A DNA stretch of 42,685 nt from an uncultured virus (IMG/VR IMGVR_UViG_3300037483_001817) (Duplodnaviria; Heunggongvirae; Uroviricota; Caudoviricetes): IMG/VR virus record IMGVR_UViG_3300037483_001817. The stretch is one strand, 5' to 3'. The translations under genes and the position numbers were made by a program. Positions 26,372 to 42,685 of the stretch are shown in pieces. Positions within the stretch are counted from its first letter, which is position 1. Each line of letters starts with the position of its first letter. Under the pieces are notes generated by a model. The model searched no databases. It was not told the DNA's origin and saw only the letters and a list, made by a program, of their open reading frames with translations.

Positions 26372-27076
26372 TCAGCGTTTCACGAAGAGCGCGCCACCCC
26401 CAAGGCCGGGCCCGAAGTAGTTCGGCAGCTCGGCTTCGCGCTCAGGCTTGTCCCGCAGAAAGACCTCGCAAGCCTTCTTCACACCCGGCAACAGCTCCCA
26501 CTCGTAGTCGTCAATGACGACACGCGCGCCGCTCGACAACTTCGCGTACACCTTGTTGAAGCTGTCGATGATCGACGAGTACATGTCGCCGTCGAAAAAG
26601 GCGAACGCGATCGAAGACGGGTACTCCGCATCGGGAATCGCGGAGAACCAGCCAGAGTGGACGTGAGACGGGCGTAGACCGCTACGCTCGAAATTCTTGT
26701 CGAAGACCTTGCGGGGAGTCATGCAAAAGCCCTCCTCGAACAAAGGTACATCACCGATCGGTTTGTCCTCTGAGGTCGGAGCAGGCACCCCTTGCCAGGA
26801 ATCATAGACGTGCAATTCCCGGTCGTCCTGCCGCAGAGCATCAAGTAGCCGCCGCATCATGATCGTCGTCGTGCCCTGGAAACACCCCAGCTCAACCACG
26901 TGCCCCGGAACACCCGCGCGTACGACGCGCTCAAGTTCCATCAGCACGTGGTACATCTTGCTCGGCGAGGACTGACCTATCGGCACAGGATGCTCGCCGA
27001 GTATCTGCCGCACCAGGTCGTCACCCGGGGCAGGAGGCGGCATCATTCCGAAGAGTGGGTGCTGGGCTTTATGCAC
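26372..27076 (-). CDS. TylF/MycF/NovP-family sugar O-methyltransferase
   Basis: VPGHVVELGCFQG, YDSWQG, GWF, FFDGDMYSS, VIDDY, PGVKKA. Confidence 0.9.
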   Translation of the reverse strand: MHKAQHPLFGMMPPPAPGDDLVRQILGEHPVPIGQSSPSKMYHVLMELERVVRAGVPGHVVELGCFQGTTTIMMRRLLDALRQDDRELHVYDSWQGVPAPTSEDKPIGDVPLFEEGFCMTPRKVFDKNFERSGLRPSHVHSGWFSAIPDAEYPSSIAFAFFDGDMYSSIIDSFNKVYAKLSSGARVVIDDYEWELLPGVKKACEVFLRDKPEREAELPNYFGPGLGGGALFVKR

Positions 27077-27083
27077 GGCGGTC

Positions 27084-27398
27084 CTACTTCACAGCGGACG
27101 TGAGTTTTGCATTCTCGACCGTGAGCGTCGTGACCTGTTCGAGCAGGCTCATGTTCTGCTGGCTGAGCACACGGATCGTGCGTTCAAACAGCTCCGCGTT
27201 GCAGTGCATGAGCTTGTTCACGGGACTCAAGCGATCAGCTAGGGCCACGATGACACGTTGAATCTCGACGGCCATGTCTGGCGTTGACCGTTCCAGATGC
27301 CGACGTGCAGCAGCAACCTGTTCGTCAAGTTCCTGCGGCGTGAGTGGAGGTCTGGCAAGAAGCCACTGTGGGAGCGAACCGATCTGCCTTGCCGTCAT
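27084..27398 (-). CDS. hypothetical coiled-coil protein
   Basis: Heptad-like C-terminus LSQQNMSLLEQVTTLTVENAKL. Confidence 0.55.
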   Translation of the reverse strand: MTARQIGSLPQWLLARPPLTPQELDEQVAAARRHLERSTPDMAVEIQRVIVALADRLSPVNKLMHCNAELFERTIRVLSQQNMSLLEQVTTLTVENAKLTSAVK

Positions 27399-27467
27399 CG
27401 TGCGTCCGAGCCTACTACTCCCCAGCAGAACAAAACAGAACCGTAGACAGCGGCGGCGGTTAACAGG

Positions 27468-28619
27468 TTACCGCCAAAACTCGTCCGGCACTGCGCTATG
27501 CCCGAACGCCCACGACGGCCGACCTTCGACCTCGTTCCAGTTGACGTACGGCTCCTTGATCTTCTTCTCGAGGACGGTGATGTTGCTGGCGACGCCATCG
27601 ACCGCTTCGTTGAACGTCACACGGCCGATGCTCTCGTGAAACTCCTCGATGACCCGGGTGACGGTCTTGACGTGATGGAGGCCGCGGGTGTCGTGGAACA
27701 GCAGATGCCCGCCGATCCGTAGATGCGAGAAGCAGCGCAGCGCGAACGCCAGCCGAAGCTCAGCCGCGCCGTCGTTGAACACCAGATCGAACTGCTCGCC
27801 TGGCGTCGGATTCCACTGATCGTAACTCTGCATCGAGACGTGAGGCCGAACGCCCAGCCTCTGGAGGTTTCCCTCGGTCGTCGCGATCCACGCAGGATCG
27901 GTGTCCAAGCTCAAGAACCGCGTGCCAGAGGCGATCGACTGAGCAATGATCTGCGTGCTGCCACCGACACCGAATTCGAGGACCGCGCTCGCTCTCTGCG
28001 CGTACGTCTGTATCAGCCTGGCATCTTGCGAGCTGAGATCTCCGATGAACTTCGGAGGGAGCTCGCTCGCGAGGCGCTCCCCCTCGAACGTCCAACCAGA
28101 GACATCGATGAAGTTCGAAAAGACGGTGGTCCAGGGCAGACGGCGCTTGTACGTCGTGCGGTAGCGGAAGAGCCCACTGATCTGGTTGAAGTAGTCTTCG
28201 CTGTTCGTGTCGTGGGCCACGACAACCTGCGCGAGCTGCGCGAGCTGCCTGATGTCGACGATCCGCTGCTCGACAGGTGCGTGATCGACAAAGGCGATCG
28301 CGTAGGGCAGCTCATCGCCTTCGAGGGGTCGTACCGGGTCAAGTTCGCTCCACGAACGCATGTACCCAATCGCATGGTTGTTCGAGCGAAGATGCTCGAA
28401 CCGCTCGAACCACTCGCGGTCGCTCTCGAGCGTGACGATCCGCCTACCCGTCGCCAGCGAAACCTCATGCAAAGGCAGCGTACTGCCCTCACCAGCTCCC
28501 AGCTCCAAGACAATGCCGTCCGGGACGCGGAGCACCGCTTCACACAACACAGGGCGATGCGTCTCGTAGGAATTGCGGACACCAGCGAAAGCTGCACGGA
28601 TGATGCGTTCTGTATTCAC
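27468..28619 (-). CDS. tandem two-domain class I SAM methyltransferase
   Basis: Motif I twice (VLELGAGEGST, VLEFGVGGST), each followed by FVDH/FNDG and AHDT/FHDT. Confidence 0.8.
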   Translation of the reverse strand: MNTERIIRAAFAGVRNSYETHRPVLCEAVLRVPDGIVLELGAGEGSTLPLHEVSLATGRRIVTLESDREWFERFEHLRSNNHAIGYMRSWSELDPVRPLEGDELPYAIAFVDHAPVEQRIVDIRQLAQLAQVVVAHDTNSEDYFNQISGLFRYRTTYKRRLPWTTVFSNFIDVSGWTFEGERLASELPPKFIGDLSSQDARLIQTYAQRASAVLEFGVGGSTQIIAQSIASGTRFLSLDTDPAWIATTEGNLQRLGVRPHVSMQSYDQWNPTPGEQFDLVFNDGAAELRLAFALRCFSHLRIGGHLLFHDTRGLHHVKTVTRVIEEFHESIGRVTFNEAVDGVASNITVLEKKIKEPYVNWNEVEGRPSWAFGHSAVPDEFWR

Positions 28620-28683
28620 GTAAAATTCCTTCGTGGGCCACGGCGTTCGTTGAGTGCTTATCCGATTGTCCGGTTATCACCCA

Positions 28684-28926
28684 TCACAGCAACCCTGCCT
28701 TCTTAGCCACGTCGATCACGTTGTCCAGCATGTACTGCATTCGTTCGAGCGCTGCTTTCGTTGCGCGCTTGGCAGATGCGGGTGACTTCTTGGGGTCAGG
28801 CCAAGAATCCTTGTCGGTTCCAGAACAAATCTCGATTCCGGTGTCAGTCAAGATCCTTGCTTCAATGGTCGTATCGTTGTTCCCGACGTGGCTGGTCTCA
28901 AACTTCGTAACGATCTCGATCTTCAT
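28684..28926 (-). CDS. hypothetical protein
   Basis: GGGAG SD; ORF track. Confidence 0.5.
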   Translation of the reverse strand: MKIEIVTKFETSHVGNNDTTIEARILTDTGIEICSGTDKDSWPDPKKSPASAKRATKAALERMQYMLDNVIDVAKKAGLL

Positions 28927-28968
28927 GCTTCATGACTCCCTGGGCGACAATCGAATAAGCATGCTTCG

Positions 28969-29913
28969 TTACCGCAGGACAGTCTCCAACAGCGTCTTCA
29001 TTCGGTTCGTGTACGTGTGGTGCTGCCGAACGGCTTCGAACGTGCGATCCGCGTGCTCGCGGCGTTCTTGGTCATTAGCCAGGAAGTAGTCGATCTTCGA
29101 TTGCAGATCCACGAGGTCGCGCGGGCGATACGTGACGAGCCCCGGGATATCCAGGCCCTCGACAGCGGGATGAATGAGAAACCCGCCACGGCCCAGAGTC
29201 TCGGGGACGCGATCACTCCAGTACCTCGGGATCCCCGCGAAGCACGAGTCGCCAACGACCACCTTGACGCTCGCGTAGAGGTCGTTGAGCCGCCCCTCGC
29301 GGAACACACCTGTCGTGTCCCCGTTGAAACGTCGAAAACGTGCGCCGTAGGTTTGCTCGAGCCATCGGATCAGTTCGCCGCGGAACGGGTACTCGGGGTG
29401 GTAGTCCCGGGCACCGACGAAGGCTACGTCCGTCGCGAGCTCGGGGCGGGCCGTTCCACGAAAACAACCGCGCTCGACGACCGCTGCCGGCAGCCAGATG
29501 TGGTTGACACCGCGCGACGAAAACTCCTGCTGACGGCCACCATCGGCCGTGAAGACGTAGTCGGTCTTCCAGAAGGCATGGTCACCGACGCGATCTTGCC
29601 GCGCGTCGAGAGCGTTCAAGCCCCAGTATAGGTCCAAGTGAAAGCTGGCGGTCTTGATGTCGCGCTTGCGTAGCTTCTTGAACAGACGCTCCAGTGACAA
29701 CTCGCCGGGCGTTGTCCAGCCGTGCGTGTGCACGTACAGCAGCAACGCGGCGTGCTCACGCTTGCACGACTTGTAGATGTCCTCGGTCTTGTCACGGTTC
29801 TCCTGGAAGCGAAGCACGCGACGCCCCAGGTGCTCTAACGTCCAGGCCAGCTCTGACTCGGTGCTGTAGCTCTCGGAGTGGTTGCCAAGCAGTGCGACGG
29901 TTTGCTTACCCAT
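28969..29913 (-). CDS. GT-B glycosyltransferase (CgeB/Glyco_trans_1_2-like, phage type)
   Basis: DVAFVG, LNDLYASVKVVVGDS, YWSDRVPETLGRGGFLIHP, HTYTNR; GGAGG SD before ATG 29913. Confidence 0.85.
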   Translation of the reverse strand: MGKQTVALLGNHSESYSTESELAWTLEHLGRRVLRFQENRDKTEDIYKSCKREHAALLLYVHTHGWTTPGELSLERLFKKLRKRDIKTASFHLDLYWGLNALDARQDRVGDHAFWKTDYVFTADGGRQQEFSSRGVNHIWLPAAVVERGCFRGTARPELATDVAFVGARDYHPEYPFRGELIRWLEQTYGARFRRFNGDTTGVFREGRLNDLYASVKVVVGDSCFAGIPRYWSDRVPETLGRGGFLIHPAVEGLDIPGLVTYRPRDLVDLQSKIDYFLANDQERREHADRTFEAVRQHHTYTNRMKTLLETVLR

Positions 29914-30811
29914 TGACGACCTCCAAGATGCGAGCACGGAAGCTCGATCGCTCCTGCTCGAAGTGTGCGCGCGACGCACGAGAAATCTCCTGAATCCGCG
30001 TCGACGACAGCTTCGCTACGTGCCGAACACGATCGATCACGGCCTCGGCCGTGACCTCGTGCAACCGCGCCAGGCACATGTTTGCGCCCAGGGTCGTCGG
30101 CACGAGGAGATCCTTCGGCAACGACAGCTCGTTCATGGGCGGACCATCGCTCGTAACGACGACTGCACCCACACCCATCGCCTCGTGAATGTAGTGCCCA
30201 AAGCCTTCGTACTTGCTCGGACACAGATGGAACTGGCGGCTGTTCATGAGCTGCCGCAGCTTATCGTCAGACACGCGCTCGTACGCCTTCACGTGAGGCA
30301 ACTTCGATGCCTGTCGATAGTAGTACGGCGAGACGACCGTCAATCGGTACGGAAGCTTCTTCCATGCCTTGAGGATCGCCTCCGTGTTCTTGAGCTGGCT
30401 GTTGCCGGCCAGGTGCAAGAACCTCGGCTTGCGCTCGACGTCGGCCTGGTACAAATCGCGCGACATGAAGCCGACGTAGCACGCGCGATCGCCAGCGAGC
30501 TTTCGAAACAGCTCGTAGGCATGGTGGGTCTTGCACAAAACGCGCGTGACGGCAGGCAGCGCACGCTGGTACTCGTCGTGCCACCACTCGGGGTTCGGCA
30601 TGACCCAGTTCTCGGGCGAAGCACTGAAGACCGAGGGCACCACGGTCTCGAGGAACAGGTTCACGTCAGCCGGTGGACAGCGCGACGTATTCTGGAAATC
30701 GACGCCGGTCACGGCGTGCCCTGCGGGAATGAGTATGTCGCGAAGGATCTCGTACTCGCGCTGGAGCCCCACTCCGTTGGCGAGGTTGGTGATGATGTTG
30801 AAACGCGTCAT
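29906..30811 (-). CDS. GT-B glycosyltransferase (GT4/Glycos_transf_1-like)
   Basis: FLHLAG..KNT, CPSKYEGFGHYIHEAMGVGAVVVTSDGPPMNE. Confidence 0.85.
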   Translation of the reverse strand: MTRFNIITNLANGVGLQREYEILRDILIPAGHAVTGVDFQNTSRCPPADVNLFLETVVPSVFSASPENWVMPNPEWWHDEYQRALPAVTRVLCKTHHAYELFRKLAGDRACYVGFMSRDLYQADVERKPRFLHLAGNSQLKNTEAILKAWKKLPYRLTVVSPYYYRQASKLPHVKAYERVSDDKLRQLMNSRQFHLCPSKYEGFGHYIHEAMGVGAVVVTSDGPPMNELSLPKDLLVPTTLGANMCLARLHEVTAEAVIDRVRHVAKLSSTRIQEISRASRAHFEQERSSFRARILEVVNG

Positions 30812-31743
30812 GCGGGGTTACGAGCGTGATCCTCTAGTTCCTGCATGTCGATGTGCGCATCTCGAATCGGACTGTCGTCGTACCAGTCACGATAGTCGTA
30901 GCCCGGATCCGGTTTCGGAAACGACTGGCCACGCGAGAGCGTCTTGCGCAACGCCACGAGGTCAGGCGTGAACTCCGTGCGCGAGCGCTTGAAGAAACGT
31001 GTTTGTAGGGCCTGGCGCTTGTTGTTCGGCGCTTGTCCCTTGTCTTGCCGTGGGAAATGCACCGGATGCAGAAAGCCACGAGGGTCGTGGCGATCCTGCT
31101 CTACAGCCATCTCGGGAACGAAGTCGAGTCGATATCCTGCGTTGCTGAGCATCTGCCCGAATACGCAATCTTCAACACCGACGGGATCACAGCCCTCCTC
31201 GAACCCGTTGACCTTGAGCGCCCACTTGAGCGGCAGCCCTAGATTGCAGCCGTAGCTCCACGCCGGCAGACATTTCTTCTTCCCCTTCGGATGGGACTCG
31301 CGGCGATGGTCCATCGAGATCCCGCCGTTCCAATGCTTGGTGTAAGAACCGCAGAGCACCGCTTCGTGTTTCCTCTCCCCACGCCGAACCGCGTCGAGCC
31401 AACCCGAGCCGAGCTTGCAGCGATCGTCCAGGAAGCAAATGTACTCTGTCGTGCAGAGAGCGATGGCCGTGTTGCGTGCGTTCGCGTTGGCGAAGAAGTC
31501 GTGCGCTGTGATGCGCTGCTCCCCCTGCCAAAGGGTCGGTTTAGGCTTGGTCTGGACGAGCTTCTTTATCTCTTTGACCGGCCGGTAACCGATCGCGGTG
31601 GCCGGGCGACCAAGGGCGTCGACGACGATCAGCTCGATCTTGTCCTCCGATCGAGCCTGCTTTTCGATGCCGTCACAGAGCCACTCGAGATGAGGCTCCT
31701 CCCGCGCGGTGATATAGGCGACGGTGAACTTCATATCGATCAC
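30808..31743 (-). CDS. GT-A glycosyltransferase (GT2-like)
   Basis: ELIVVD, ANARNTAI, YICFLDD, VNGFEE, ED. Confidence 0.85.
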   Translation of the reverse strand: MIDMKFTVAYITAREEPHLEWLCDGIEKQARSEDKIELIVVDALGRPATAIGYRPVKEIKKLVQTKPKPTLWQGEQRITAHDFFANANARNTAIALCTTEYICFLDDRCKLGSGWLDAVRRGERKHEAVLCGSYTKHWNGGISMDHRRESHPKGKKKCLPAWSYGCNLGLPLKWALKVNGFEEGCDPVGVEDCVFGQMLSNAGYRLDFVPEMAVEQDRHDPRGFLHPVHFPRQDKGQAPNNKRQALQTRFFKRSRTEFTPDLVALRKTLSRGQSFPKPDPGYDYRDWYDDSPIRDAHIDMQELEDHARNPA

Positions 31744-32825
31744 CCGATCGGCTGAAGGATCTCCAGCACGGCCGACAGTGCCGTCTCACCCACGCAACAA
31801 TCCATGTCATCGACACCAAACGAAACCACGACACGCTCGCCGTCGATCGCCAACCCCGCGGCGAACTCGATCCCGTTGGGCACCAACTTCATGGGAACAC
31901 TTGCTGACTTCATACTGCCTCGCGAGTCGACCAAATACCAAACGTGCCAGTAATACTTCAATTTATCGACGAACTTCATCGCGTGGCCGACACCGAGCCA
32001 TGCGTCATCGCCCACACGCACGAGCTGCGTCCCACCGCGTAGACCTTCGTAGCTCCGTCCTCCCACGGTCAGATTCGCGCGGTCCCGTTCACGCTTCTTC
32101 TTGCGCTCGTCACGCGTTCGCTCCTCGCGCTCCTCTTCGGATTCCTGTGCGCGCTCCTGCGCTCGACGCACGGCCCGCTGTGGCGTCTCGAAGGTCCGGC
32201 GCGAGCGCGTCGACGGATGCACCAGCGCGTCCTCGTAACGAAGCTCGCCGCGCTCGTCGAACAGCATTCCTTTGTCGATCGCATAAAGGAAGCGAGGTTC
32301 TGCACAACGGTCGAACGGCACCCAGTTTTTTTGCGGTGCGTAGCTGAACGCCTCGCCCCGGATCGGACGGGCCTGCACGACATTGTATTCGGCGTCGAAC
32401 CAGAGCAGCACCTGCTCGGCGATCTGCTTTCTCCGGTCGTTCCGCTGAAGGTGGAGCGCCGCCGCTACCCCCTGGAGTCCGTCCTTGTCCGTCCAGAAGA
32501 GCCGAACATCCTCGTATCCCACGCTGCCCGCGCTCGCACGCGGCAGCTCGTCGCGCTCGCGCATCTTGTAGATCTCGACGGGTTTCCATGACCGCGGATC
32601 GAAGATGACCATCGCGTTCTTGGTCCGCGACTCACCCGGCTTCGCCTTGCTACTTCGGATCAACGTGCCACCAGGCATTGCGTAATCCGAACAGCGCAGC
32701 ACGCACCGCCAGAGCTGACCGTCGAAGTGAATCGACGGATTCATCGACCACATCTCTTTGTGCGGCCGAAAGGAGATGTCCGTGATCCTCCAAGGAATGA
32801 GTTCGTCGGCTCTCTTCACGTTCAC
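31740..32825 (-). CDS. GH130-like five-bladed beta-propeller protein, paralog A
   Basis: NPSI, YEDVRL, QKNWVPF, LRGGTQ, IEFAAG, SFGVDD. Confidence 0.7.
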   Translation of the reverse strand: MNVKRADELIPWRITDISFRPHKEMWSMNPSIHFDGQLWRCVLRCSDYAMPGGTLIRSSKAKPGESRTKNAMVIFDPRSWKPVEIYKMRERDELPRASAGSVGYEDVRLFWTDKDGLQGVAAALHLQRNDRRKQIAEQVLLWFDAEYNVVQARPIRGEAFSYAPQKNWVPFDRCAEPRFLYAIDKGMLFDERGELRYEDALVHPSTRSRRTFETPQRAVRRAQERAQESEEEREERTRDERKKKRERDRANLTVGGRSYEGLRGGTQLVRVGDDAWLGVGHAMKFVDKLKYYWHVWYLVDSRGSMKSASVPMKLVPNGIEFAAGLAIDGERVVVSFGVDDMDCCVGETALSAVLEILQPIG

Positions 32826-34120
32826 CCCCCGATCGGCCGCAACAGCTCCATGACCGCGGACAGCCGGGTCTCACCGAGGCGGCAATGCATGTCGTCGACA
32901 CCGAACGAAACAACGACACGATCACCATCGATCGCCATCCCGGCAGCAAACTCGATGCCCTCCGGCGCGAGCTTCATCGACTCGCTGGTGGCCGTCATCT
33001 TGCCGCCCGAGTCGACGCAATAAAACACGTGCCAGTAATACTTCTTGCCATCGACGAACTTCATCTCGTGGCCCACGCCGAGCCACGAGTCCTCGGCCAC
33101 GCGTACGAGCTGCGTCCCACCGCGGAGCCCGTTGTACTTCGGCAAGAGCATCCGACCCGAGCCCATGACTCGCGTGGAGTCGCTGCTGTGCCTTTGCGTG
33201 CCTCGCTGCTGCTGCGCAGAATGCGTCGCCGGTCGCGACGACGGCCGCGAGACCATCGCGTCGAGCTTGATCCGTCCACCGCGCACGATGCGAACGTCAC
33301 CGCCTCGAATCCGCGGCAGCTTGCGCTCCGGCGCCTTCGCACGCTTGCCCTGATCACGATCGCGCTGATCCTGGTCCTGGTTGTGCTGCGGCGGAGGCGG
33401 CGGCGGCGGCGGCTCGGGCAGAGGTCCTGCCTCAACATCACCCAGCGCGCTCGGCTCGCTCGGCGCCTCACGAACCCGCGCCGATGGGCTGACGCGTGCC
33501 TCGTCACCGTGCAATGTCCCGCGATCGCCGAACATCGTGCCCTTGTCGATCGAATACAAGAAACGAGGTTCCGTGCTGTGGTCGAACGGCACCCAATTCT
33601 TCTGGGGCGTGCCGCTCCACCCGTCGCCGCGGATCGGATGTGCGCCGACGATATCGTAGTTGTCGTCGAACGAAAGCAACACCTGCTCGGGCGGCTGGTG
33701 CTGCGGCTTCATCCCAGATGCAGCGGTGCGAGGCTCGCGATCACGCCTGAGGTGGAGCGCGGCGGCGATCCCTTGCAGTCCACCCTTGTCCGTCTTGAAC
33801 AGCCGCATGTCCTCGTAACCCACGTGAGGACACGACTCGCGGACCAGGCGGTCGTTCTCGTGCATCTTGAACACCTGAACAGCCTTCCACGATCTCGGAT
33901 CGAAGATGACCATCGCGTTCTTGGTCTGCTGCCCTGTCGACCGCGCGCTCTTGCTCCGAATCGTCGTACCGTCGGGCATCGCGTAGTCACAGCAGCGCAG
34001 AACGCAGCGCCAAGTGTCACCGTCAAAGTGAATCGACGGATTGAAGGACCAGTAACCGTCGTACGGACGAATCGAAATATCCGTGACCATCCACGGGATA
34101 ACGTCCTGGGCAGCCTTCAT
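32822..34120 (-). CDS. GH130-like five-bladed beta-propeller protein, paralog B (long low-complexity insert)
   Basis: Same motifs; poly-Pro/Arg-rich insertion. Confidence 0.7.
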   Translation of the reverse strand: MKAAQDVIPWMVTDISIRPYDGYWSFNPSIHFDGDTWRCVLRCCDYAMPDGTTIRSKSARSTGQQTKNAMVIFDPRSWKAVQVFKMHENDRLVRESCPHVGYEDMRLFKTDKGGLQGIAAALHLRRDREPRTAASGMKPQHQPPEQVLLSFDDNYDIVGAHPIRGDGWSGTPQKNWVPFDHSTEPRFLYSIDKGTMFGDRGTLHGDEARVSPSARVREAPSEPSALGDVEAGPLPEPPPPPPPPQHNQDQDQRDRDQGKRAKAPERKLPRIRGGDVRIVRGGRIKLDAMVSRPSSRPATHSAQQQRGTQRHSSDSTRVMGSGRMLLPKYNGLRGGTQLVRVAEDSWLGVGHEMKFVDGKKYYWHVFYCVDSGGKMTATSESMKLAPEGIEFAAGMAIDGDRVVVSFGVDDMHCRLGETRLSAVMELLRPIGG

Positions 34121-34283: not shown

Positions 34284-34443
34284 GGCACCTACCGGGATGC
34301 CTGAGCCCCATCGACCAGCCGCACCCTGGTCGCTCCACGGGGGGATGAAGGGGATGACCCGCCGGGATGTGCTCTTGAATCTCTCTCTGCTCGAACGAGC
34401 GATCGGTGCGGGACAGCTCGAACGAGACGATGAGAGGTTTCAA
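34284..34443 (+). ncRNA. candidate structured cis-regulatory 5' leader
   Basis: TACGTT -10 at 34272; nested stems GGCAC/GTGCT, CCGG/CCGG, CCCC/GGGG, CGACCAG/CTGGTCG; TTGAATCTCTC can pair with GAGAGGTTTCAA covering the SD and the A of ATG (folded by eye). Confidence 0.5.
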
Positions 34444-36581
34444 TGAGCGACGACAAGAAGCGTGATCGTGCGTTGCAGCGCCGCGTGCGCGAACGCCAGG
34501 CCAAAACCGGCGAGAGCTATCAAACCGCGTGGCGACAGCTGACGGCTGACGCGACGCAGGATCCCTCCAGCAAGCCCGAAACTCCCAAGACCGCTCGCCG
34601 TGTCCCTTTACCAATGGGCACCGCCATCAAAGTCCTGCCTGGCCAAGTTGTGCTGATCACGGTGCGGCCTCAACTCAAGTCGTTTTGGCCCGAGCGTCTT
34701 TTAATCAAGAACGCTGATCGTTGGAACGTCAAGCGTCTCGCTGTCGAGCATCGGAACTCGTTACTTGAAGCTGGACCTCGTACGTCCACAACCTTCTCGC
34801 TAGACACGTGGCACCCACTCACTGCGCGAGAAGTTCACTGCGGCGAGGACGTCAGCGTAGAGGTGACTTACACCGGCCTCAACAAGGATGGCGAATCCTT
34901 CGAGGCCGCCTTGTTCGGCTGGGAGGGCGATCCTCCTGCAAAGTCAACGGATCGCGACAACGCGGATCGCTCGGAACGTGTTTCAGAACGCGCAGAATCT
35001 TCAAGCGTGCCTGGAGCGAACAGTCCAGTCATCGAGCTGCCGTTGATCGTCACGTCCCCTACTCTCTTCGTAGATCGCCTCACGATCACGGACGCGAAAG
35101 ACTGGATCGTGCATGACATCCGAACGCGCGGGAAATCAATCTTCGTGCAGAGTGGAGATCTGCCCGGGGAGATGTTCTCGGAGTCCGCACATGTAATCTT
35201 GGAGCCACTGACCGCGGATGACCGTGTCCTGGTCCTGGCGACCTATGTCGGAAAGGACACGACCGCACGTCTCGTGGTCACGCTATCGGGCACGACAGCG
35301 CCTCCGAACAGCCCACGCGTGTGCAGCTACTTCTTGCCAATGTCTACAGGCATTCCAATCTTGCCCGCACAAAGCGCGCAGATCACGGGTCGCCCCCAGT
35401 CGAACTTTCTGCCAGAGCGCCTGGTCATCGCTGACCCAGACGACTGGATCATCAACGACATCAAGGCAGGAATTCGCAGTCAGCTCGCCGCCGTTGGTGA
35501 CATTCCAGGCCAAGCTTTCTCTAGCCGCACCGTCGGCGGTCACGTGACGCTCGATCCCGTACGAAGAAGCCAGGACTTCATCGTAGTCGTGACGCGCGGA
35601 GAAGACTGCAAGAAGGGCGCAAGTTTCTTCTGTGGTGTTCAAGGACGTGTGTTGCAGCACAACGAGCACGAACGCCAAACAGAAACCGACGAGCAGCTAG
35701 TTACCGCGACCGAGATCAACGCTGAGGCTAACACCATCGCCCGACGCCTCGTCCTTCCGCTCCATCTTCCTCATGTGCCGCCGCACCAACCGACACGCGT
35801 GACTGCTCGTACGGACAACGCCATGGACATTCACAGCATTCACATATCGAGCGCCGGTACGAACGGTGGCGCCGCCGCTTGGGTCGTGAACGACATCGAG
35901 ATCGATGGTCGATCGCAGCTCACGCTCAAAGATCTGCCCGGCGCCTTGTTTGGGGGCAACGGCGTCGCGGCTGCGAAACACGCAACGGCCAAGCTTTCGC
36001 TGGAAGGCTTCGATCCCGTAGAGCGAAATCGCGAACTGGCCCTTATCGTGACCTATGTTGGTCCCAATCCTGAGGGGGCAGTCTTCTACGCCGCTGCCGT
36101 GGGCTTCAAGCCGCCGCAACGGCCCACCATTGTACCCATCGCATCAAAGTCTCCACTTCCACCGATAACGGAAGCAACGATCACGGCACGTATTCAAAAC
36201 GCGCCCTTCCAGATGACCAGGATCGAGATCGACGCCGGACACACCCCAGGTGGAGCGGCTGACTGGATCGTTAAAGATCTACGCATCAACGGGAGAACCC
36301 AATTCGCGCAGTCTGGTGACATCCCAGGAGATATGTTCGCGAGCAGCGCGATCGACACCTTCGTCAAGATGGAGGCTTGCGAAGCTGGCAATGCGATCGA
36401 GATTGACGTGACCTATATCGGGCTGAATGAAAGCGGCGCTATTTTTTCCGCACGGCTCGAAGGCGTCGTCACGCGAGGCGACTACAACGTCCCGCCACCA
36501 GACTTGAACGTGCTCGTTGAGACATCCGGTCAGGGTCCTGGAGAATTCGTCGTCGCGACATGCAACTGGCGCGCGCCGTAA
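34443..36581 (+). CDS. protein with short basic N-domain (RRVRERQAKTGESYQTAWRQL) and five tandem ~110-120 aa beta-sandwich repeats
   Basis: Recurring LP[ML]..IT.RPQ..F.PERL.I..DWIV.DI..G.SQ..GD[IL]PG..F..VTY.G..F...L.G. Confidence 0.8.
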   Translation: MSDDKKRDRALQRRVRERQAKTGESYQTAWRQLTADATQDPSSKPETPKTARRVPLPMGTAIKVLPGQVVLITVRPQLKSFWPERLLIKNADRWNVKRLAVEHRNSLLEAGPRTSTTFSLDTWHPLTAREVHCGEDVSVEVTYTGLNKDGESFEAALFGWEGDPPAKSTDRDNADRSERVSERAESSSVPGANSPVIELPLIVTSPTLFVDRLTITDAKDWIVHDIRTRGKSIFVQSGDLPGEMFSESAHVILEPLTADDRVLVLATYVGKDTTARLVVTLSGTTAPPNSPRVCSYFLPMSTGIPILPAQSAQITGRPQSNFLPERLVIADPDDWIINDIKAGIRSQLAAVGDIPGQAFSSRTVGGHVTLDPVRRSQDFIVVVTRGEDCKKGASFFCGVQGRVLQHNEHERQTETDEQLVTATEINAEANTIARRLVLPLHLPHVPPHQPTRVTARTDNAMDIHSIHISSAGTNGGAAAWVVNDIEIDGRSQLTLKDLPGALFGGNGVAAAKHATAKLSLEGFDPVERNRELALIVTYVGPNPEGAVFYAAAVGFKPPQRPTIVPIASKSPLPPITEATITARIQNAPFQMTRIEIDAGHTPGGAADWIVKDLRINGRTQFAQSGDIPGDMFASSAIDTFVKMEACEAGNAIEIDVTYIGLNESGAIFSARLEGVVTRGDYNVPPPDLNVLVETSGQGPGEFVVATCNWRAP

Positions 36582-36669
36582 CTTCACCCCGTTCACTGCC
36601 GTGTGCTTTGTCGAAAGCGTTACTTGAGTTCGCGAAGAGCCGGTAGCAGCAGCAAATGATCCAGCACGA

Positions 36670-37269
36670 TTAGATGGCACTGCCGATCATCGCCGAAAAG
36701 AATGTACAGTCGTTCAAACCGATGTACATGACGTCAACCTCGATCGACTCCTTGCACGCGTGATACTCGACGACGGTATCCACAGCATTCGTCGCGAACA
36801 GATCTCCGGGGACCGGGCCCGGCTGCTTGAACTGCGACTTTCCGTCACCACGAAGATCCTCGATCAGCCAGTCAGCGGCACCCCCGATCGAGCCGGCGTT
36901 GCTAACGACGAAACGGCTGGGAAGGAAGGGGCCACCTAGAATCGGAAGCTTCAGGGTCACTTTCTGCATAGCCCGCACGCGAGGCTCAGTGGTGGGTTTG
37001 GTAGTTGCATCCTCCGCTGTGTAGTGAACGGCCGAGCTGATCGGCATGATCATCCGCCGCTCTCCGTTGGGCGCAGCGAGAACGGCCGCATAGATCTCGG
37101 TGATGAATCCAAGCGCTTCGGGTGGCAACTCGAACGAGCGGCGAATCTCGTCGCAGGTCTTGATATCGATCTTCTTCAGCAGCGCGACGGTCTGTTGCTT
37201 CGCTGCCTCGCGTGCCTGATCGGAGATGTCGCGAAAACGGAGGTTGGCGAGGTGTTGGAGGTTGTGCAT
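36670..37269 (-). CDS. helical N-domain + single copy of the same beta-sandwich repeat
   Basis: MPISS..FLPSRFVVSNAG..GGAADWLIEDLR..GKSQF..GPVPGDLFA..IEVDVMYIGLN..FFSAMIG; closest to repeat 5 of 34443-36581. Confidence 0.8.
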   Translation of the reverse strand: MHNLQHLANLRFRDISDQAREAAKQQTVALLKKIDIKTCDEIRRSFELPPEALGFITEIYAAVLAAPNGERRMIMPISSAVHYTAEDATTKPTTEPRVRAMQKVTLKLPILGGPFLPSRFVVSNAGSIGGAADWLIEDLRGDGKSQFKQPGPVPGDLFATNAVDTVVEYHACKESIEVDVMYIGLNDCTFFSAMIGSAI

Positions 37270-37311: not shown

Positions 37312-38268
37312 TTAGAACCAGGCGCGGCCGGCAACGGCGGAAGTCCGTGCAGCCGAGCCCCACACGCGACCGACGAACTCGGCGTTGCGCAGCGTGTCTT
37401 CGAGACGATTCGCGAGGCCGCGCTTGCTCGGCGCGTTCCATAGCCGCTGGAGACCATCACCCATCTGGGCAAGGGGGAACGACATCACCTTCTGCCGCAG
37501 ATCGTTCCAGCTCGTCGGCGGCGAGCCATCGCGCCGCGTGATCTTGGGGACCAGCTCGGTGATCACGGCCGGAGCTGCATGGATCTGCTTGACCGCCGAT
37601 CCGAAATCGAAGCTCGTCTCCGGCCAGTTGATGCCGTTCTGCGCGAACACACGACGAACCGCGTCGCGCGACGCCAGCACCTTTCGGAGACCAGCCCCCA
37701 CCTGCCACCCTGAGCTCGGGATGATCTTCAACACGTGCGGCCGATAGTTTTGATTCACCTTGCGCGTGTGCTTCATCGCAAGCAGTTCCAGACCGTGCTC
37801 CCCCAGGAGATGCTCTGCGGTACTTTCAACCGCGTCGTACCACTGGCGGTAGACTTCCTCCTGCGCCTCGCGCTCTGCCTCCATCTGGGCATCTTCGCCT
37901 TCCGCTCCCCGAGACATTTCCCAATAGTGCTGCTGGTTCCTCTCGTCGACACTGTCCCAGTCGGGAAGACCGAAGAGCTTCGCGAGCTGGTCGATGGTGA
38001 TCTTGTCGCTAGGTGGCGCCTTCGCCGCCGCCGCTGCTGCCTTCGCCGCGGTAGGGGTCGGGGCTCTTTTCGTCGCGTGACTCCGCTGCGGAGCAACGCG
38101 CGCCTTCGGCCGGGACGACGGCGCGCTCATCAGTGCGAATGGTCCGCCTCCACCGTAGTTGGAGTACCCAGGCACCGATCGCCGCGACGATTGTGTGCGG
38201 AGAGCTTCGGCGATCTCGCGTTCGAGCTGGCGGGGCGATTTCGATCGGGGGCTTCGTGAGCGTTGCAT
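37312..38268 (-). CDS. hypothetical protein with N-terminal KSPRQLEREIAEAL tag and basic disordered linker
   Basis: ORF track; AAGGA SD. Confidence 0.7.
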   Translation of the reverse strand: MQRSRSPRSKSPRQLEREIAEALRTQSSRRSVPGYSNYGGGGPFALMSAPSSRPKARVAPQRSHATKRAPTPTAAKAAAAAAKAPPSDKITIDQLAKLFGLPDWDSVDERNQQHYWEMSRGAEGEDAQMEAEREAQEEVYRQWYDAVESTAEHLLGEHGLELLAMKHTRKVNQNYRPHVLKIIPSSGWQVGAGLRKVLASRDAVRRVFAQNGINWPETSFDFGSAVKQIHAAPAVITELVPKITRRDGSPPTSWNDLRQKVMSFPLAQMGDGLQRLWNAPSKRGLANRLEDTLRNAEFVGRVWGSAARTSAVAGRAWF

Positions 38269-38417
38269 GGGATCCTTCGTGCATCATGCAGCCCGGGTTC
38301 GCGGGCCGCAATGTTCCGTCAGTTACCGTCGTCCAGGGCGCGAAGCCTCCGGCCGAGCTGCCCGGTGCAGATGCGGCGTGCGATAGCGAGCACGTGTTCT
38401 GGTACGCGCATCGTGAC

Positions 38418-38681
38418 CTAACGCCCAAGCATGTAGAAAGACCACCCGATGAACCACGCGACGCCAGGTGGCGTTAGGCTGATCGGTCGTCCATGAGAGT
38501 GAAGGAGAACAAACGCACTCCCATTCGTCGTCACTTGATCAGGACACACGACTCCGTATCCAGACCAGAGCCACACCGAGCTTCCGTGCTTGGTGTGTCC
38601 CAAAAGCACGTTGCGACAAGGATCGCCGAACGCTCCCTGATGCCATTCTGTTGGGCTGATATCCACGTGTTCACCGTTCAC
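38418..38681 (-). CDS. hypothetical protein
   Basis: ORF track, co-oriented with neighbours; weak start. Confidence 0.4.
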   Translation of the reverse strand: MNGEHVDISPTEWHQGAFGDPCRNVLLGHTKHGSSVWLWSGYGVVCPDQVTTNGSAFVLLHSHGRPISLTPPGVAWFIGWSFYMLGR

Positions 38682-38693
38682 CGAACAGACTTG

Positions 38694-39266
38694 TTATTCT
38701 GCGCGGTCGACCAGGGTTTTGATCTCTTCCCAGACTTCCAGGTCACGACGCGTCCGCTCGTCGTCTGCCTCCGACCTGGGCTGCCGAACCTTGTTGACGG
38801 TCATGAAGACCTCGCCACTGAGCAGGGCCCGCAGAAACTTCAGCTTCGCTGGGACCACCTTCCGCAGCTCGCGCATGTCTGCACCAGGGAACATCGTGAC
38901 GAACGCGAGGATCTTCTGCGCGTCCGAGTACACACCAACGCCGTCCCAGTGAACGTGCCCCTTGTCGTCGAGAAACATTGCCCCGCCCCACTCGGTGTAC
39001 GTGGACGTCTTGGGCTTGTTCCAGCGGCCTGTTTGGGGGTTGAGGGTCTGCGAGACGAAGCGCCAGCCCTTCTTCGGCTTGGGACCTTCGAGCCAATATC
39101 TGATCTGGGTCCTTTTCGTGAACCCGTACGGGTAATCAGCGACGACGTACGCCGTGGCCTCGCTCGTGTGGCCGTAAAGCGGCTGCTTGCCTTCGACTGC
39201 CGCGCCGATCGGACGCGAGAGAGATTCGGCGATTTCGCGATCGAGCTGGGCGGGGGTCTTGGTCAT
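38694..39266 (-). CDS. phage-type hypothetical protein (GHTS..TAYVV.DYPYGF...WNKPK.STY) with N-terminal KTPAQLDREIAESL tag
   Basis: GAGG SD 6 nt before ATG 39266. Confidence 0.75.
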   Translation of the reverse strand: MTKTPAQLDREIAESLSRPIGAAVEGKQPLYGHTSEATAYVVADYPYGFTKRTQIRYWLEGPKPKKGWRFVSQTLNPQTGRWNKPKTSTYTEWGGAMFLDDKGHVHWDGVGVYSDAQKILAFVTMFPGADMRELRKVVPAKLKFLRALLSGEVFMTVNKVRQPRSEADDERTRRDLEVWEEIKTLVDRAE

Positions 39267-39282
39267 GGTCATCCTCGATTGG

Positions 39283-39639
39283 TCAGCGGGTGAGATCGGC
39301 GTAGGCGCGGGAGAGCGGACTCTCCGGGTCTGGGTTGCGCGCGAGCTGCGCATCGGCCTCTGCACGATTCTGGGGCCAGGTAACGGTGTAGACAGTGACC
39401 TTGCCCGAGGCGTCACGAATCGTGACCCGTCCCGTTTTGGCCAGCTTCACCGTTGCACCCAGCGCGCGAAGCTTGCGCAGGTAGAACGCGGTTCCCGCGG
39501 TGTGAATGCCATCCTTTAGGCCGACGATGTGGATCGTCTTGGATGCCCTCTTGGCGATCGGCGCAGCCGCAGTCGCCGGGGCAGGCTGCGAAAGTGCTTC
39601 GGCGATTTCGCGTTCGAGTTGGGCGGGAGTCTTGCGCAT
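39283..39639 (-). CDS. hypothetical protein with N-terminal KTPAQLEREIAEAL tag
   Basis: ORF track; 1 nt after upstream stop. Confidence 0.7.
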   Translation of the reverse strand: MRKTPAQLEREIAEALSQPAPATAAAPIAKRASKTIHIVGLKDGIHTAGTAFYLRKLRALGATVKLAKTGRVTIRDASGKVTVYTVTWPQNRAEADAQLARNPDPESPLSRAYADLTR

Positions 39640-39640
39640 G

Positions 39641-39847
39641 TCAGCGCACCAGCTTCTTGGTACGAGCGACGCTGGCTTCCGCCATCGTCAGATTCTTGCG
39701 TGCTTCCCGCAGTGCCGGGTAGGTGTCGGCCTTGCGGCGCGCGTTTTCGTGAGCACGCTCGGCCTGCGCGAGCAGGGTGCGCGCTCTTCCCATCTCGGCG
39801 GAGACCGCGACCAGGACGTCGAGCATTTCGTCTCGGGGCGTGCTCAC
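39641..39847 (-). CDS. small coiled-coil protein
   Basis: GGAGG SD, GTGA overlap. Confidence 0.6.
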   Translation of the reverse strand: MSTPRDEMLDVLVAVSAEMGRARTLLAQAERAHENARRKADTYPALREARKNLTMAEASVARTKKLVR

Positions 39848-39897
39848 GATCCTCCACCAACGTACGCGTGATCGAGTTGTGCGGGAGTCTTGGCCAT
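39844..39897 (-). CDS. 17-aa micro-ORF MAKTPAQLDHAYVGGGS (truncated tag)
   Basis: First 9 residues match the tag; TAGGAT 5 nt upstream; coupled to next gene. Confidence 0.45.
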   Translation of the reverse strand: MAKTPAQLDHAYVGGGS

Positions 39898-39925
39898 GGG
39901 AGATCCTATTCCGTGGGAGGGAACG

Positions 39926-40588
39926 TTACGCCAAGAGCCTCTGCTCGGACACAATCTCGGCGTCGATGACGTCGTCCTGCATGGTCGGGTTCCAACGGGG
40001 TGCCGTTTCGACCGGGCTACGGCGCGGGCTCGGACGCGAGGGCGCTGGCGCCTCATCAACGGCGATCGGGTTCTCGACGGGCACGTTCGCCCGCCCGCCG
40101 CGGCTCTTGCGCGCGCGTGTCGCCGCAGCCCGCGCCGCAGCCTCGTGCTTCTTGCAGGCGGCCTCGCGAGCAAGTGCGATCGACGATCCATTCGCGAGTG
40201 CGTTGATCAGGACCAGCACGACGAGGGCGACCGTGCTCGTTGCACCGGTAGACACCAGCATGACGCCTTCGATGGCGAGGACAAAGCCGAGCGCTTTGCG
40301 GGTGTCATTGAACGTGGCACGACCGAACTTGTAGACCGTGATCGCGGAGAAGAGCGCGCAGCCAAGCACGACCGCGAGCATGACCATCGCGAGTCCCGAG
40401 TTACCGGAGGACCAGGTGGCCGGCAGCTGCCCGTGCGCCAGGGTGCGCGCGAACCAGGGAACGACAGCGCCGACCAGGGCACCGATCAGCGTCGCCTGCG
40501 GATAGCGGATCGCGCATGCGAGCTGCGTGACGATGTCGGTGGTAGCGGACTTGTCGGAGGTCACTCGGGTCCTGCGGCGCTTGCTCAT
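39926..40588 (-). CDS. four-TM membrane protein with basic/disordered C-terminal tail
   Basis: Four hydrophobic segments; start re-assigned to ATG 40588. Confidence 0.75.
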   Translation of the reverse strand: MSKRRRTRVTSDKSATTDIVTQLACAIRYPQATLIGALVGAVVPWFARTLAHGQLPATWSSGNSGLAMVMLAVVLGCALFSAITVYKFGRATFNDTRKALGFVLAIEGVMLVSTGATSTVALVVLVLINALANGSSIALAREAACKKHEAAARAAATRARKSRGGRANVPVENPIAVDEAPAPSRPSPRRSPVETAPRWNPTMQDDVIDAEIVSEQRLLA

Positions 40589-40653
40589 GGGGCGGAGTAA
40601 GAGCACCCCGCGTGCCGTGTGCAAGACCGCGCAAGTATGCGGCTCGAAACCGT

Positions 40654-40722
40654 GGGTAGCTACGCACCCGTCTCTCTCGCGTTGAGGCTCGGGGTGATGC
40701 AGACACGGGTATTGTAGTACCC
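40654..40722. promoter_or_regulatory. Paired operators GGGTA-N6-TACCC (40654-40669 one mismatch; 40707-40722 perfect)
   Basis: GGGTAgctacgCACCC and GGGTAttgtagTACCC; proximal box 65 nt from ATG 40588 (- strand). Confidence 0.7.
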
Positions 40723-40865
40723 ATAGTCGCGTGGCTGCCAGCTGGCCGCTGGCCGCTGCTCTCTGCCGTGCGAACACAGCTGGGGAGTGTGGGGGCGTCT
40801 AGATCAGCTCGTCGAGAGGTAACAGAACGAGGCGCCAAGCCAATATTTTGTTACCTTCGGCCAGG

Positions 40866-41201
40866 ATGACTACCGCTCCCCTGACTTCCCGACGCTCAAC
40901 GAAGAAGGCTCCTCCGATGCAGCCGATGCAGCGCTACGTGGTGGGTGACATCGTCGAGTTGAACTCCGGCGGTCCTCCGATGACCGTAGCCGGCATCAGC
41001 ACACCGGGTCGCAACACCGACGTCCCCGGTACCTCCGACATCGTCGTGTGGTGGCGGTTGAAGAGCGGCAAGCCCCAGATCGCCGAACTCGACTCGCGTT
41101 GCGTGCATCGCAACGCGACTGCGCTCCAGATGAATCGCCTCGCACGTGCGCTCCAGCAGGATCGGCACCCGAAGAAGAAGCCGCACCGCCGCCGCGTCTA
41201 G
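40866..41201 (+). CDS. YodC/DUF2158-like small protein
   Basis: VGDIVELNSGGPPMTV...VWW. Confidence 0.7.
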   Translation: MTTAPLTSRRSTKKAPPMQPMQRYVVGDIVELNSGGPPMTVAGISTPGRNTDVPGTSDIVVWWRLKSGKPQIAELDSRCVHRNATALQMNRLARALQQDRHPKKKPHRRRV

Positions 41202-41430
41202 CTCGGTTCTAATTCTGTCGAGTTTTGAGGAAACGCGGTTCGATTCATGTCGGCACCCGTGCGAATTCCGTCGCCACGGCGCGGAAAACGCGTGCGAGTT
41301 CCTCGATCGCGGCGCGCCGTTTTCGATGGTTGGCTAGGGTTCTGAGGAAGCCCGAGGGGTATCTGGGAAACACGGGGTTTCAGGGCACACTCCTGGCCGC
41401 TGGCCGCTGGCCGCGGGCCGTAATGCGGCG

Positions 41431-42207
41431 TCATGCCGTTTTTCGTTGCTGCACGAGGGTGACCAGCTCTGTGACGCTCGCAAACGGACCGAGAACCTGC
41501 GCCAACGCTTTCTTGGCTTCGTCGTTGAGTACCCAGATTGCGCGGCTGTCGTCGAGCCATCTCTCGTACAGCTCGTGGACCTTGTCTGAGGTTTGACGCA
41601 TCTCGATGACGACATCGCTGAAGGCCCTGTTCTGCTCGAACATCTCGAAGCAGCGCGCGTAGATTTCTCCGGGCTCCCGGGGAGAAAACGGCCGCCCGAT
41701 CCCGCGTGGCAGCTTTGCCAGTTCTTTGGGGTCGTACACCACGACTACTTGCTCGTGTCCTCTGGCATCTCGTCGAGGGACGCGAGCTGGATGTAGCAAC
41801 CCGCGCTCCTCGTAGTTCTTGAGGGTTTGTATCGAGATGCTGAGAGCATCAGTGCTCTCGTTACGCGTCAGCCACGTGCTCGTGTCGATCGTGTTCGCTG
41901 ACTTGGTTGGTCTAGTCAGCTCCTGAAGTTTATCGCGTAGTTTGGTCAACTCTCTTGGATCGTGCATCACGACGACGTGCTCGCGCCCCTTGGTGTCTTG
42001 TCGAGACACACGCTGCGGACACAGCAGTCCACGCCGTTCGTAGTTTTTGATCGTCGACACCGCGACGCCCAAGAGGCGTCCACTCTCCTCTCGGGTGAGC
42101 CAGCCTTCGGTCTCAGACGGATCAAGCGAATCTGACGTTTCAGACGGATCAGATTTTTGGATCTCCTTGTTGGGGACATCTGCGTGTGTGTTGTGTCGGG
42201 TAACCAT
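41431..42207 (-). CDS. DNA-binding protein with two tandem MerR/excisionase-like HTH repeats and a possible third HTH
   Basis: WLTREES..LLGV.VSTIKNYERRGLL.P and WLTRNES..LSISIQTLKNYEERGLLHP. Confidence 0.8.
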   Translation of the reverse strand: MVTRHNTHADVPNKEIQKSDPSETSDSLDPSETEGWLTREESGRLLGVAVSTIKNYERRGLLCPQRVSRQDTKGREHVVVMHDPRELTKLRDKLQELTRPTKSANTIDTSTWLTRNESTDALSISIQTLKNYEERGLLHPARVPRRDARGHEQVVVVYDPKELAKLPRGIGRPFSPREPGEIYARCFEMFEQNRAFSDVVIEMRQTSDKVHELYERWLDDSRAIWVLNDEAKKALAQVLGPFASVTELVTLVQQRKTA

Positions 42208-42331: not shown

Positions 42332-42685
42332 GTGCCGGACGAAACCACCAGCGCAATCGACCGTGTTTTCGACCTCATTGACAGTGGGGTCAACGCGGCT
42401 GACCGCGTGCTCAACCGGCACAAGTACACGGAAGAGACGCTCCAGCAGACACGGCGCGGCAAGCGTCGCGAGGTCATCGACGTCGAGCATTCCGACAAGC
42501 CGAAGGCCAAGCCGTCTTCCTCCACCGCGGTAGCGAAGAGACTGCACTTCTACATCGTCGAGACGGTCGATCCGAAGTCCGGCAGCACGATCTTCGTCGT
42601 CACTGACGGCGGCAACGCGCGTACGGAGTGCAGCACACGCGCGTTCGCAGCCCAGATCCTGCGGGCGCTGGAGAAGGCGTCGTGA
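42332..42685 (+). CDS. hypothetical protein
   Basis: ORF track, divergent from HTH gene. Confidence 0.6.
   Translation: MPDETTSAIDRVFDLIDSGVNAADRVLNRHKYTEETLQQTRRGKRREVIDVEHSDKPKAKPSSSTAVAKRLHFYIVETVDPKSGSTIFVVTDGGNARTECSTRAFAAQILRALEKAS

Follow-up and report, generated by a model that had tools for sequence, protein, structure and literature searches.

What is the function of a protein composed of five diverged copies of one jelly-roll-like domain, and how does it relate to the convergent gene beside it, which carries a sixth? This question is raised by positions 34443-37269 of the uncultured virus record IMGVR_UViG_3300037483_001817 (IMG/VR; labelled Caudoviricetes), the whole 42,685-nucleotide (nt) stretch of which was analysed and is referred to below as the window. 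The first-pass annotation of this DNA had proposed that the copies derive from the capsid protein of a tailless virus. The reading that we favour, with a probability of roughly 0.45, is that both genes belong to an uncharacterised jelly-roll domain family of large unclassified phage-like elements, the majority of whose genes resemble no known family, and that the longer product, of 712 amino acids (aa), is a non-enzymatic adaptor or scaffold. The two open reading frames (ORFs) lie exactly where they had been placed and are subdivided as follows:

34443-36581, plus strand: 712-aa ORF with an ATG start; five diverged jelly-roll-type domains, preceded by a basic motif and followed by a conserved tail
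34443-34547, plus strand: N-terminal basic helical motif of ~35 aa (MSDDKKRDRALQRRVRERQAKTGESYQ.AWRQL; the N-motif), with 10 K/R in 35 residues
34599-34922, plus strand: repeat R1 (aa 53-160), the most degenerate copy
35025-35309, plus strand: repeat R2 (aa ~195-289), shortened on its N-terminal side
35331-35642, plus strand: repeat R3 (aa 297-400)
35748-36116, plus strand: repeat R4 (aa 436-558), which has an insertion behind its PGxxF motif
36126-36482, plus strand: repeat R5 (aa 562-680), nearest to the family consensus
36483-36581, plus strand: C-terminal tail and stop codon (aa 681-712), conserved, with C707 and R710 invariant
36670-37269, minus strand: 199-aa ORF with an ATG start, convergent with the 712-aa gene
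37075-37269, minus strand: predicted four-helix N-terminal part of the 199-aa protein (aa 2-65; AlphaFold2 model)
36676-37056, minus strand: predicted jelly-roll-type domain of the 199-aa protein (aa 72-198; AlphaFold2 model and fold searches)

The five diverged repeats and the sixth copy in the convergent gene, as described at first pass, are borne out by direct comparison as well as by profile search. BLASTP of the 199-aa against the 712-aa protein returned five separate matches (residues 36-147, 214-270, 284-404, 468-554 and 510-676), with E values ranging from 2.4e-5 to 7e-26. A domain profile that drew on 81 other members of the family, and not on the 199-aa protein of the window itself, located R1 at residues 53-182 (independent E value [i-E] 3.2e-19), R2 at 213-289 (1.5e-20, profile positions 40-120 only), R3 at 297-420 (1.4e-31), R4 at 436-558 (2.5e-29) and R5 at 562-696 (2.1e-53), compared with a best i-E of 0.023 in a control consisting of 500 shuffles and the reversed sequence. 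The five repeats plus one thus stand well above chance. The domain measures ~95-125 aa in these copies. Pairwise identity among the six is 18-41%, the upper value being that between R5 and the 199-aa copy. The conserved motifs listed at first pass are real, though not uniform: R2-R5 and the 199-aa copy have both [DA]W[ILV][ILV]x[DE][IL] and GD/KD/GPxPGxxF, but the corresponding sites of R1 are degenerate (RWNVKRL; GPRTSTTF), and 'VTYxG' varies among the copies (VTYTG, ATYVG, VVTRGE, VTYVG, VTYIG and VMYIG). R2 lacks approximately the first 40 profile positions.

The 712-aa gene is real and conserved. A word-indexed search recovered 87 homologues at E <= 0.001, 13 of which are near full length (713-726 aa, 48-75% identity), and in an alignment of 14 full-length proteins all five repeats hold invariant residues; the C-terminal tail is also present in the relatives P0097, P0099 and P0071. 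Neither the 712-aa nor the 199-aa protein matched a family of any kind, catalytic or other, in Pfam, PHROGs, PADLOC or NCBIfam, and the former, judged by its sequence, is probably not an enzyme. No transmembrane or signal-like segment was detected by hydropathy in either protein (maximum KD19 1.48 and 1.25). At the nucleotide level, third-position GC is 0.66 in the 712-aa gene and 0.73 in the 199-aa gene, compared with 0.76-0.79 in the genes at 37312-38268, 38694-39416 and 32822-34120, all above the value of the 712-aa gene; no hairpin resembling a terminator was found between the two convergent genes (z 0.81).

The AlphaFold2 model of the 199-aa protein, computed from an 82-row alignment (predicted local distance difference test [pLDDT] 90.1, predicted TM-score [pTM] 0.73), consists of four helices (residues 2-65) followed by a beta-sandwich (residues 72-198). 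The latter was classified as an eight-stranded jelly-roll-type beta-sandwich, within the 100-180 residue size of single jelly-roll capsid and penton proteins. Foldseek matches in the PDB were weak (best E 9e-4), and the best of them were jelly-roll sandwiches. As the first-pass annotation had expected, structure prediction and fold comparison led to this fold, but the list of similar structures mixes viral and cellular proteins, including CUB, the furin P-domain, GOLD, chain 6h82_b of Haloarcula hispanica icosahedral virus 2 (HHIV-2) and VP2 of infectious bursal disease virus (IBDV), and a second examination of the top 1000 chains gave the same picture. Matches in BFVD (E 1e-4 to 1e-2) were mostly uncharacterised tailed-phage proteins and collagen-like or tail-fibre knobs, and the nearest ESM Atlas clusters (scores 0.86-0.95) contain hypothetical proteins of 119-148 aa, mainly labelled Uroviricota; all of these are weak leads. 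No immunoglobulin (Ig)-like entry was among the matches listed by Foldseek or VIA-align, which does not exclude a family that is not listed. The models support a jelly-roll-type sandwich for the repeat domain and do not suggest an Ig-like one. The resemblance appears to be as generic for a lectin as for a capsid protein; no sequence relatives were found in the PDB for the family profiles A5 and A1, and the comparisons neither establish nor exclude a specific tie between the repeat domain and capsid proteins.

The 199-aa protein, used as query in an exhaustive phmmer search, recovered 209 representative clusters at E <= 0.001, 73 of them at E <= 1e-10. The family signature is DWxxxD / SQ / GDxPGxxF / VTYxG on a domain of ~110-120 aa. 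Three candidate members (P0142, P0211 and P0222) were rejected as FG-GAP-like proteins that match just a GxxDWxxxDxxGDGK stretch; in a Pfam scan of 71 further members, P0021 gave a weak KaiC match and P0222, which is probably not a true member, matched FG-GAP families, with no additional domain in the rest. The domain occurs alone (P0117, 113 aa), behind four helices as in the 199-aa protein, behind a low-complexity P/Q/G-rich region, or behind an N-terminal membrane helix (P0084, P0119 and P0106). Chains of 2, 3 or 5 copies begin with the basic ~35-aa N-motif, and 3-copy, 2-copy and 5-copy forms exist with and without an ATPase (P0046, P0022, P0071, P0097 and P0007).

This ATPase resembles RadA. 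PF06745 (KaiC/RecA-type ATPase) lies between the N-motif and the repeats in 9 of the 87 homologues; residues 46-255 of P0007 align to residues 67-275 of RadA (5lkm) with E 2.6e-34 and retain KNRFG, and a RecA-like core with KNRFG is also present in P0071. TIGR00416 matches P0007 and P0071 with E 1e-46 and 5e-49, respectively, both below the model cut-off. The likeness to RadA/Sms is confined to such fused relatives, in which the basic N-motif takes the place of the zinc finger and two, three or five jelly rolls that of the Lon-like domain, whereas the 712-aa protein contains no ATPase: neither it nor the 199-aa protein matched an ATPase family. A search for fused forms longer than 1246 aa (1247-3560 aa) found none, which is weak evidence.

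In a tree of 82 domain copies from 44 hand-picked proteins (quick IQ-TREE search), every repeat position forms its own clade. R1, R2 and R3 group with copies 1, 2 and 3, respectively, of the 3-copy proteins (Shimodaira-Hasegawa approximate likelihood-ratio test [SH-aLRT] 99, 99 and 91), R4 with copy 1 of the RadA-linked 2-copy proteins (99) and R5 with copy 2 of the 2-copy proteins (96), the 199-aa type being the sister of the R5 clade (89). The five-copy chain corresponds to a 3-copy gene plus a 2-copy gene, which are separate in many relatives; there, the 2-, 3- or 5-copy part is often fused behind the RadA-type ATPase core. Within these clades, R1 and R3 of the window cluster with the 3-copy proteins (R2 is unresolved in the tree) and R4-R5 with the RadA-linked P0071, in neither case with other 5-copy proteins, and fusion or fission therefore occurred more than once. 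A 2-copy paralogue without R1-R3 is seen in a sediment contig (run X3), where the N-motif is joined directly to R4-R5. On that contig, window positions 34288-34540 are joined, after 203 other letters, to 35851-35942 and 36519-36578, and several short contigs match the N-motif region alone at 85-93%.

The genomic context was examined in 70 relatives' loci, extracted from 423 pattern matches in one metagenome scan. The relatives are of soil and sediment origin, on contigs of up to 461 kb among the loci and up to 502 kb in the protein table. Eleven loci (L018, L020, L022, L028, L030, L032, L039, L040, L042, L050 and L055) have in common a conserved gene module with almost no Pfam or PHROG match, which the window shares in part. 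The genes of the window to which this comparison refers, and the others for which the scans gave an annotation, are these:

4522-5559: RuvB-like ATPase, three domains, complete
11221-12828: Ser/Thr kinase (family scan)
glycine-rich-domain protein and cupin, among the window ORFs (family scan)
19890-34120, minus strand: 14-kb row of glycosyl- and methyltransferase genes with two 2-oxoglutarate (2OG) oxygenases, directly upstream of the 712-aa gene and divergent from it
37312-42207, minus strand: leftward gene row ending in the 199-aa gene, with homologues in L018, L030, L032, L022, L050 and L040
37312-38268 and 38694-39416, minus strand: genes of this row, syntenic in relatives
39283-39639, minus strand: 118-aa ORF of the same row
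39926-40777, minus strand: membrane protein gene, syntenic in relatives
41431-42207, minus strand: MerR-like regulator, syntenic in relatives
42332-42685, plus strand: first gene (cluster C5) of the conserved module, cut by the window end

The left part of the module, on the minus strand, comprises homologues of 37312-38268, 38694-39416, 39926-40777 and the MerR gene. The 199-aa gene, which starts 42 nt from the end of 37312-38268, has a counterpart at the same end of the left row in L030. The right part, on the plus strand, comprises more than 12 genes, including two membrane proteins, followed by one to three tandem genes with a C-terminal family domain that is nearly invariant across the 11 loci (the three copies of L022 are identical), and then by coiled-coil, W/Y-rich, transglutaminase-like and large low-complexity proteins. 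Since the last ORF of the window is the first gene of this right-hand part, the window is cut at the edge of the module. The domain-bearing tandem genes (L022 9575-12212, L018 10245-12390, L040 12294-12833 and L028 5866-7377) differ in their P/Q/G-rich N-terminal parts (Q up to 18%, P up to 18%) and share near-identical C-terminal domains. The transglutaminase-like (GDC[DE]) protein is encoded downstream of them, after at least one intervening gene, and its gene in L028 is interrupted by an intein that includes a LAGLIDADG domain. The Q-rich module proteins may be cross-linked or processed.

Outside the module, the relatives' loci encode accessory genes for RF-1, PTH2, RNA ligase, Ro60/TROVE, Mom, HNH, LAGLIDADG and GIY-YIG endonucleases, an integrase, a TnpB-like protein and Cse1, as well as collagen-like fibre proteins. 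In L010 (3188-4626, minus strand), an RF-1/PCRF gene lies directly beside and overlaps a LAGLIDADG homing-endonuclease ORF, and in L011 (1376-2095, minus strand) an RF-1 gene adjoins the gene of a 3-copy protein.

Taken as an adaptor or scaffold, the 712-aa protein may work as follows. Each copy keeps its own identity across homologues, and the five specialised domains would function as one fixed assembly. The 3+2=5 pattern points to joint action of the domains by a Rosetta-stone argument and is the strongest functional hint available. The DNA-linked end of the assembly would be supplied by the N-motif or, in relatives, by the RadA-like motor, and the jelly rolls would dock, probably through like-with-like contacts, onto structures made of the very conserved single-domain paralogues of the module.

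Several observations weigh against this reading. DNA binding by the N-motif is a guess from its charge and its placement ahead of RadA, and the motif also occurs alone in ordinary Myxococcota proteins of unknown role and other architecture (three records, from Kofleriaceae and Polyangium genomes). No RadA-type ATPase was found in the window: the best match to the RadA part of P0007 has a nonsignificant E of 0.001 over 25 residues, outside both genes. The pairing of the 712-aa with the 199-aa gene is seen in this window and in none of the mapped relatives' loci, the gene maps of which were drawn with a crude ORF picker. A hallmark virus gene was recognised neither in the window nor in the syntenic module. 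Furthermore, the family was not found in IMG/VR (A1, A5 and A4) or in the plasmid collection, each as searched, or in 50,697 phage records (tblastn, P0117), and the designation 'phage-like' hence rests on the accessory genes; the product of 38694-39416 and two L018 module proteins (14976-15779 and 15761-17296) likewise had no relative in the phage records.

If the chain does not bridge DNA and a module-encoded structure, it might bind sugars. The copies would then be carbohydrate- or ligand-binding jelly rolls of the galactose-binding-domain, discoidin or carbohydrate-binding module type, and the chain a multivalent binder of a cluster-made glycan, the host surface or a partner, which we consider unlikely, although several features of the locus invite it: the row of glycosyl- and methyltransferases and 2OG oxygenases directly upstream of the 712-aa gene, GDP-mannose genes adjoining the module in L022, and four conserved polar residues of the domain (R119, D133, D138 and Q146, 199-aa numbering) that could form a ligand or metal site. 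However, the glycosyltransferase neighbourhood is not conserved in the relatives' loci, and the fusion to the RadA core together with the basic N-motif points to DNA rather than to sugars. The resemblance to GOLD (TMED/p24), discoidin/F5-8C, the subtilisin/furin P-domain, PHM and C-CPE is one of jelly-roll sandwich, at 7-12% identity and with no profile match; GOLD and similar domains are binding modules of the secretory pathway or the extracellular space, whereas both window proteins lack a signal peptide and a membrane anchor. The C-terminal knobs of collagen-repeat and tail-fibre proteins among the weak BFVD matches also speak for a binder, and the module paralogues combine a low-complexity P/Q/G-rich N-terminal part with a C-terminal domain, but target-facing binding domains usually vary, whereas the C-terminal domain is conserved here, with nearly invariant module copies and no tblastn match among the phage records.

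A cellular origin, with the genes residing on a chromosome or island rather than in a virus, is a rather improbable alternative. The repeats would then be the oligomerisation or substrate-binding part of an accessory of RadA-type repair or defence, in place of the Lon-like ring domain of RadA. The order of domains in the fused relatives fits such a replacement, with the N-motif at the place of the zinc finger and the repeats at that of the C-terminal domain, RadA itself having an N-terminal zinc finger and a C-terminal Lon-like domain. The very long contigs, the lack of a match in virus collections and the presence in the window of a RuvB-like gene, a Ser/Thr kinase and a MerR regulator are also compatible with a cellular genome, and the domain was found in 2 of 401 Myxococcota genomes, with one further homologue labelled by its source as a Gaiellaceae bacterium. 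Yet the two Myxococcota contigs concerned (6.9 and 33 kb) show part of the module gene order and no repair context, a transglutaminase-like gene directly following the domain gene in G108:C57 and following after one ORF in G383:C2; PF05065 (HK97 capsid) and PF03354 (TerL ATPase) had no match in either genome. PADLOC returned nothing for the two window proteins, homing endonucleases and phage-type accessory genes abound in the relatives' loci, one of which also has an intein, and, apart from the RuvB-like gene, no scanned window ORF matched a housekeeping family, most having no family at all.

Equally doubtful is the origin put forward at first pass, whereby the domain would be a single jelly-roll subunit from the capsid or penton of a tailless, membrane-containing virus that has gone unrecognised, and the five-copy chain a single-chain penton, a capsomer mimic or an assembly decoy. 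The closest parallel is the sphaerolipovirus penton protein VP9 (HHIV-2 gene 22, HCIV-1): chain 6h82_b is probably the HHIV-2 gene-22 product, the ORF of which has 174 aa (GenBank table), and the likeness consists in N-terminal helices followed by a barrel, as in the 199-aa protein. The published text describes the first 40 residues of the HHIV-2 penton protein as disordered and VP9 of Haloarcula californiae icosahedral virus 1 (HCIV-1) as a single beta-barrel with an N-terminal helix (PMC6414509). A copy number of five, built as 3+2, would suit a penton; the module is rich in small membrane proteins, its single-domain proteins show the extreme conservation seen in major structural proteins, and a HerA/FtsK-type ATPase is encoded in one distant locus, L048. 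Against these parallels, hhalign of the family profile gave no signal to HHIV-2 ORF22 or VP7, contigs of 100-500 kb are far above the ~30 kbp given for Sphaerolipoviridae genomes in the abstract of the ICTV profile, RadA-fused and membrane-anchored forms suit capsid subunits poorly, collagen-like tail-fibre hits occur in the relatives' loci, and the BFVD matches are to tailed-phage proteins.

The genes named at first pass as telling for or against a tailless virus were alike missing from the scans, in which 52 window ORFs were compared with PHROGs and most of them also with Pfam or NCBIfam. No major capsid protein (MCP), or pair of MCPs, and no FtsK- or small A32-type packaging ATPase was recognised; nor, as would suit a tailless virus, was an HK97 capsid, portal or terminase recognised anywhere. 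The scans recognised no capsid, penton, portal, terminase or A32-type ATPase family, within the finite sensitivity of profiles and up to the cut of the window at 42685. Thus, of the first-pass interpretation the jelly-roll-like fold stood, with the AlphaFold2 model and Foldseek behind it, whereas the derivation from a tailless virus's capsid found no support, in view of the lack of a recognised capsid or packaging gene in the window, the relatives' contigs of up to about 500 kb with their phage-like accessory genes, the RadA fusions and the 3+2 structure of the chain. The ATPase of L048 (661 aa, 1455-3440, minus strand) resembles HerA helicases; a match of this protein to the terminase large subunit (PHROGs, E 1.6e-15) was rejected, its best PDB match (E 1.3e-8) being to a chain that bears the name 'DNA helicase', with HerA and DUF87 chains next, and a homologue in a Caudoviricetes record is annotated as hera helicase.

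Least probable of all is a vertex or capsid building block of an unrecognised large prokaryotic virus lineage, with chains forming one- or two-chain pentons that tie a RadA-type ATPase or, through the basic N-motif, DNA to the five-fold vertex, which, if true, would imply that a recombinase-type motor, rather than a terminase or A32-type ATPase, underlies the packaging or ejection vertex, in a lineage missed by virus detection and without a recognisable HK97 or double-jelly-roll hallmark.

To return to the adaptor or scaffold reading, its interest lies mainly in the family. A full-text literature search with the motif strings and the topic found no paper on it, and, as far as our searches reach, no description exists of the family and its copy-number grammar, of the RadA fusions or of the module, the fold class itself being ordinary. 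A conserved domain present in 209 representative soil and sediment clusters, but missing from Pfam, PHROGs, NCBIfam and PADLOC, can now be described by a confident fold model, a signature and a defined grammar of architectures (single, 2, 3 or 5 copies, to which a RadA core or membrane anchor may be added). It marks contigs of 100-500 kb on which the strongly syntenic module, itself without a match, occurs along with numerous accessory genes of phage type; none of these contigs turned up in IMG/VR or the phage records searched. Should they be viral, the family would be a candidate for one of their structural components, none of which has been recognised. The recurrent 3+2=5 fusion hints, in addition, that the five domains form a fixed assembly to which a RadA-type ATPase is linked.

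The remainder of the window consists mostly of ORFs without any family match. An RNA scan found neither a tRNA nor an Rfam family in it, and the stretch is present in three sediment metagenome runs, with no RNA run listed as containing it. The 14-kb row includes glycosyltransferases, FkbM/TylF-type methyltransferases, two paralogous 2OG-Fe(II) oxygenases and one 1205-aa multidomain protein; tandem paralogues within it (31740-32825 and 32822-34120) overlap by 4 nt.

A ~53-nt repeat (D6) is located at the starts of four adjacent minus-strand genes of the leftward row (38196-38248, 39215-39267, 39588-39640 and 39846-39898). It encodes M..KTPAQL[DE]REIAE[AS]L, and the neighbouring proteins carry the motif KTPAQLDREIAE; the frame that starts at 39897 is a truncated remnant. 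Homologues in L009, L010, L018 and L030 bear the motif at their N-termini as well, and in L040 a module protein has it at the C-terminus. Two reports describe capsid-targeting propeptides of 10-20 residues in T4 head proteins and prohead proteases that cut after Glu, at A-X-E in SPN3US (PMC5694885, PMC3012670). As a lead only, the D6 motif resembles the T4 propeptides in form, and its I-A-E would fit cleavage by a prohead protease.

The RuvB-like gene encodes the sole P-loop among the window ORFs, with no RuvA or RuvC family recognised among the neighbouring scanned ORFs. Its matches in phage records are unannotated fragments and were set aside as uninformative on the nature of the element. 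A short Cys-rich ORF just upstream contains a tandem 78-nt direct repeat (4182-4259 and 4293-4370; 88% identical, 111 nt apart). The RuvB-like gene is conserved together with the ORF at 2168-2554 in L040 (4184-5572), at 62% identity.

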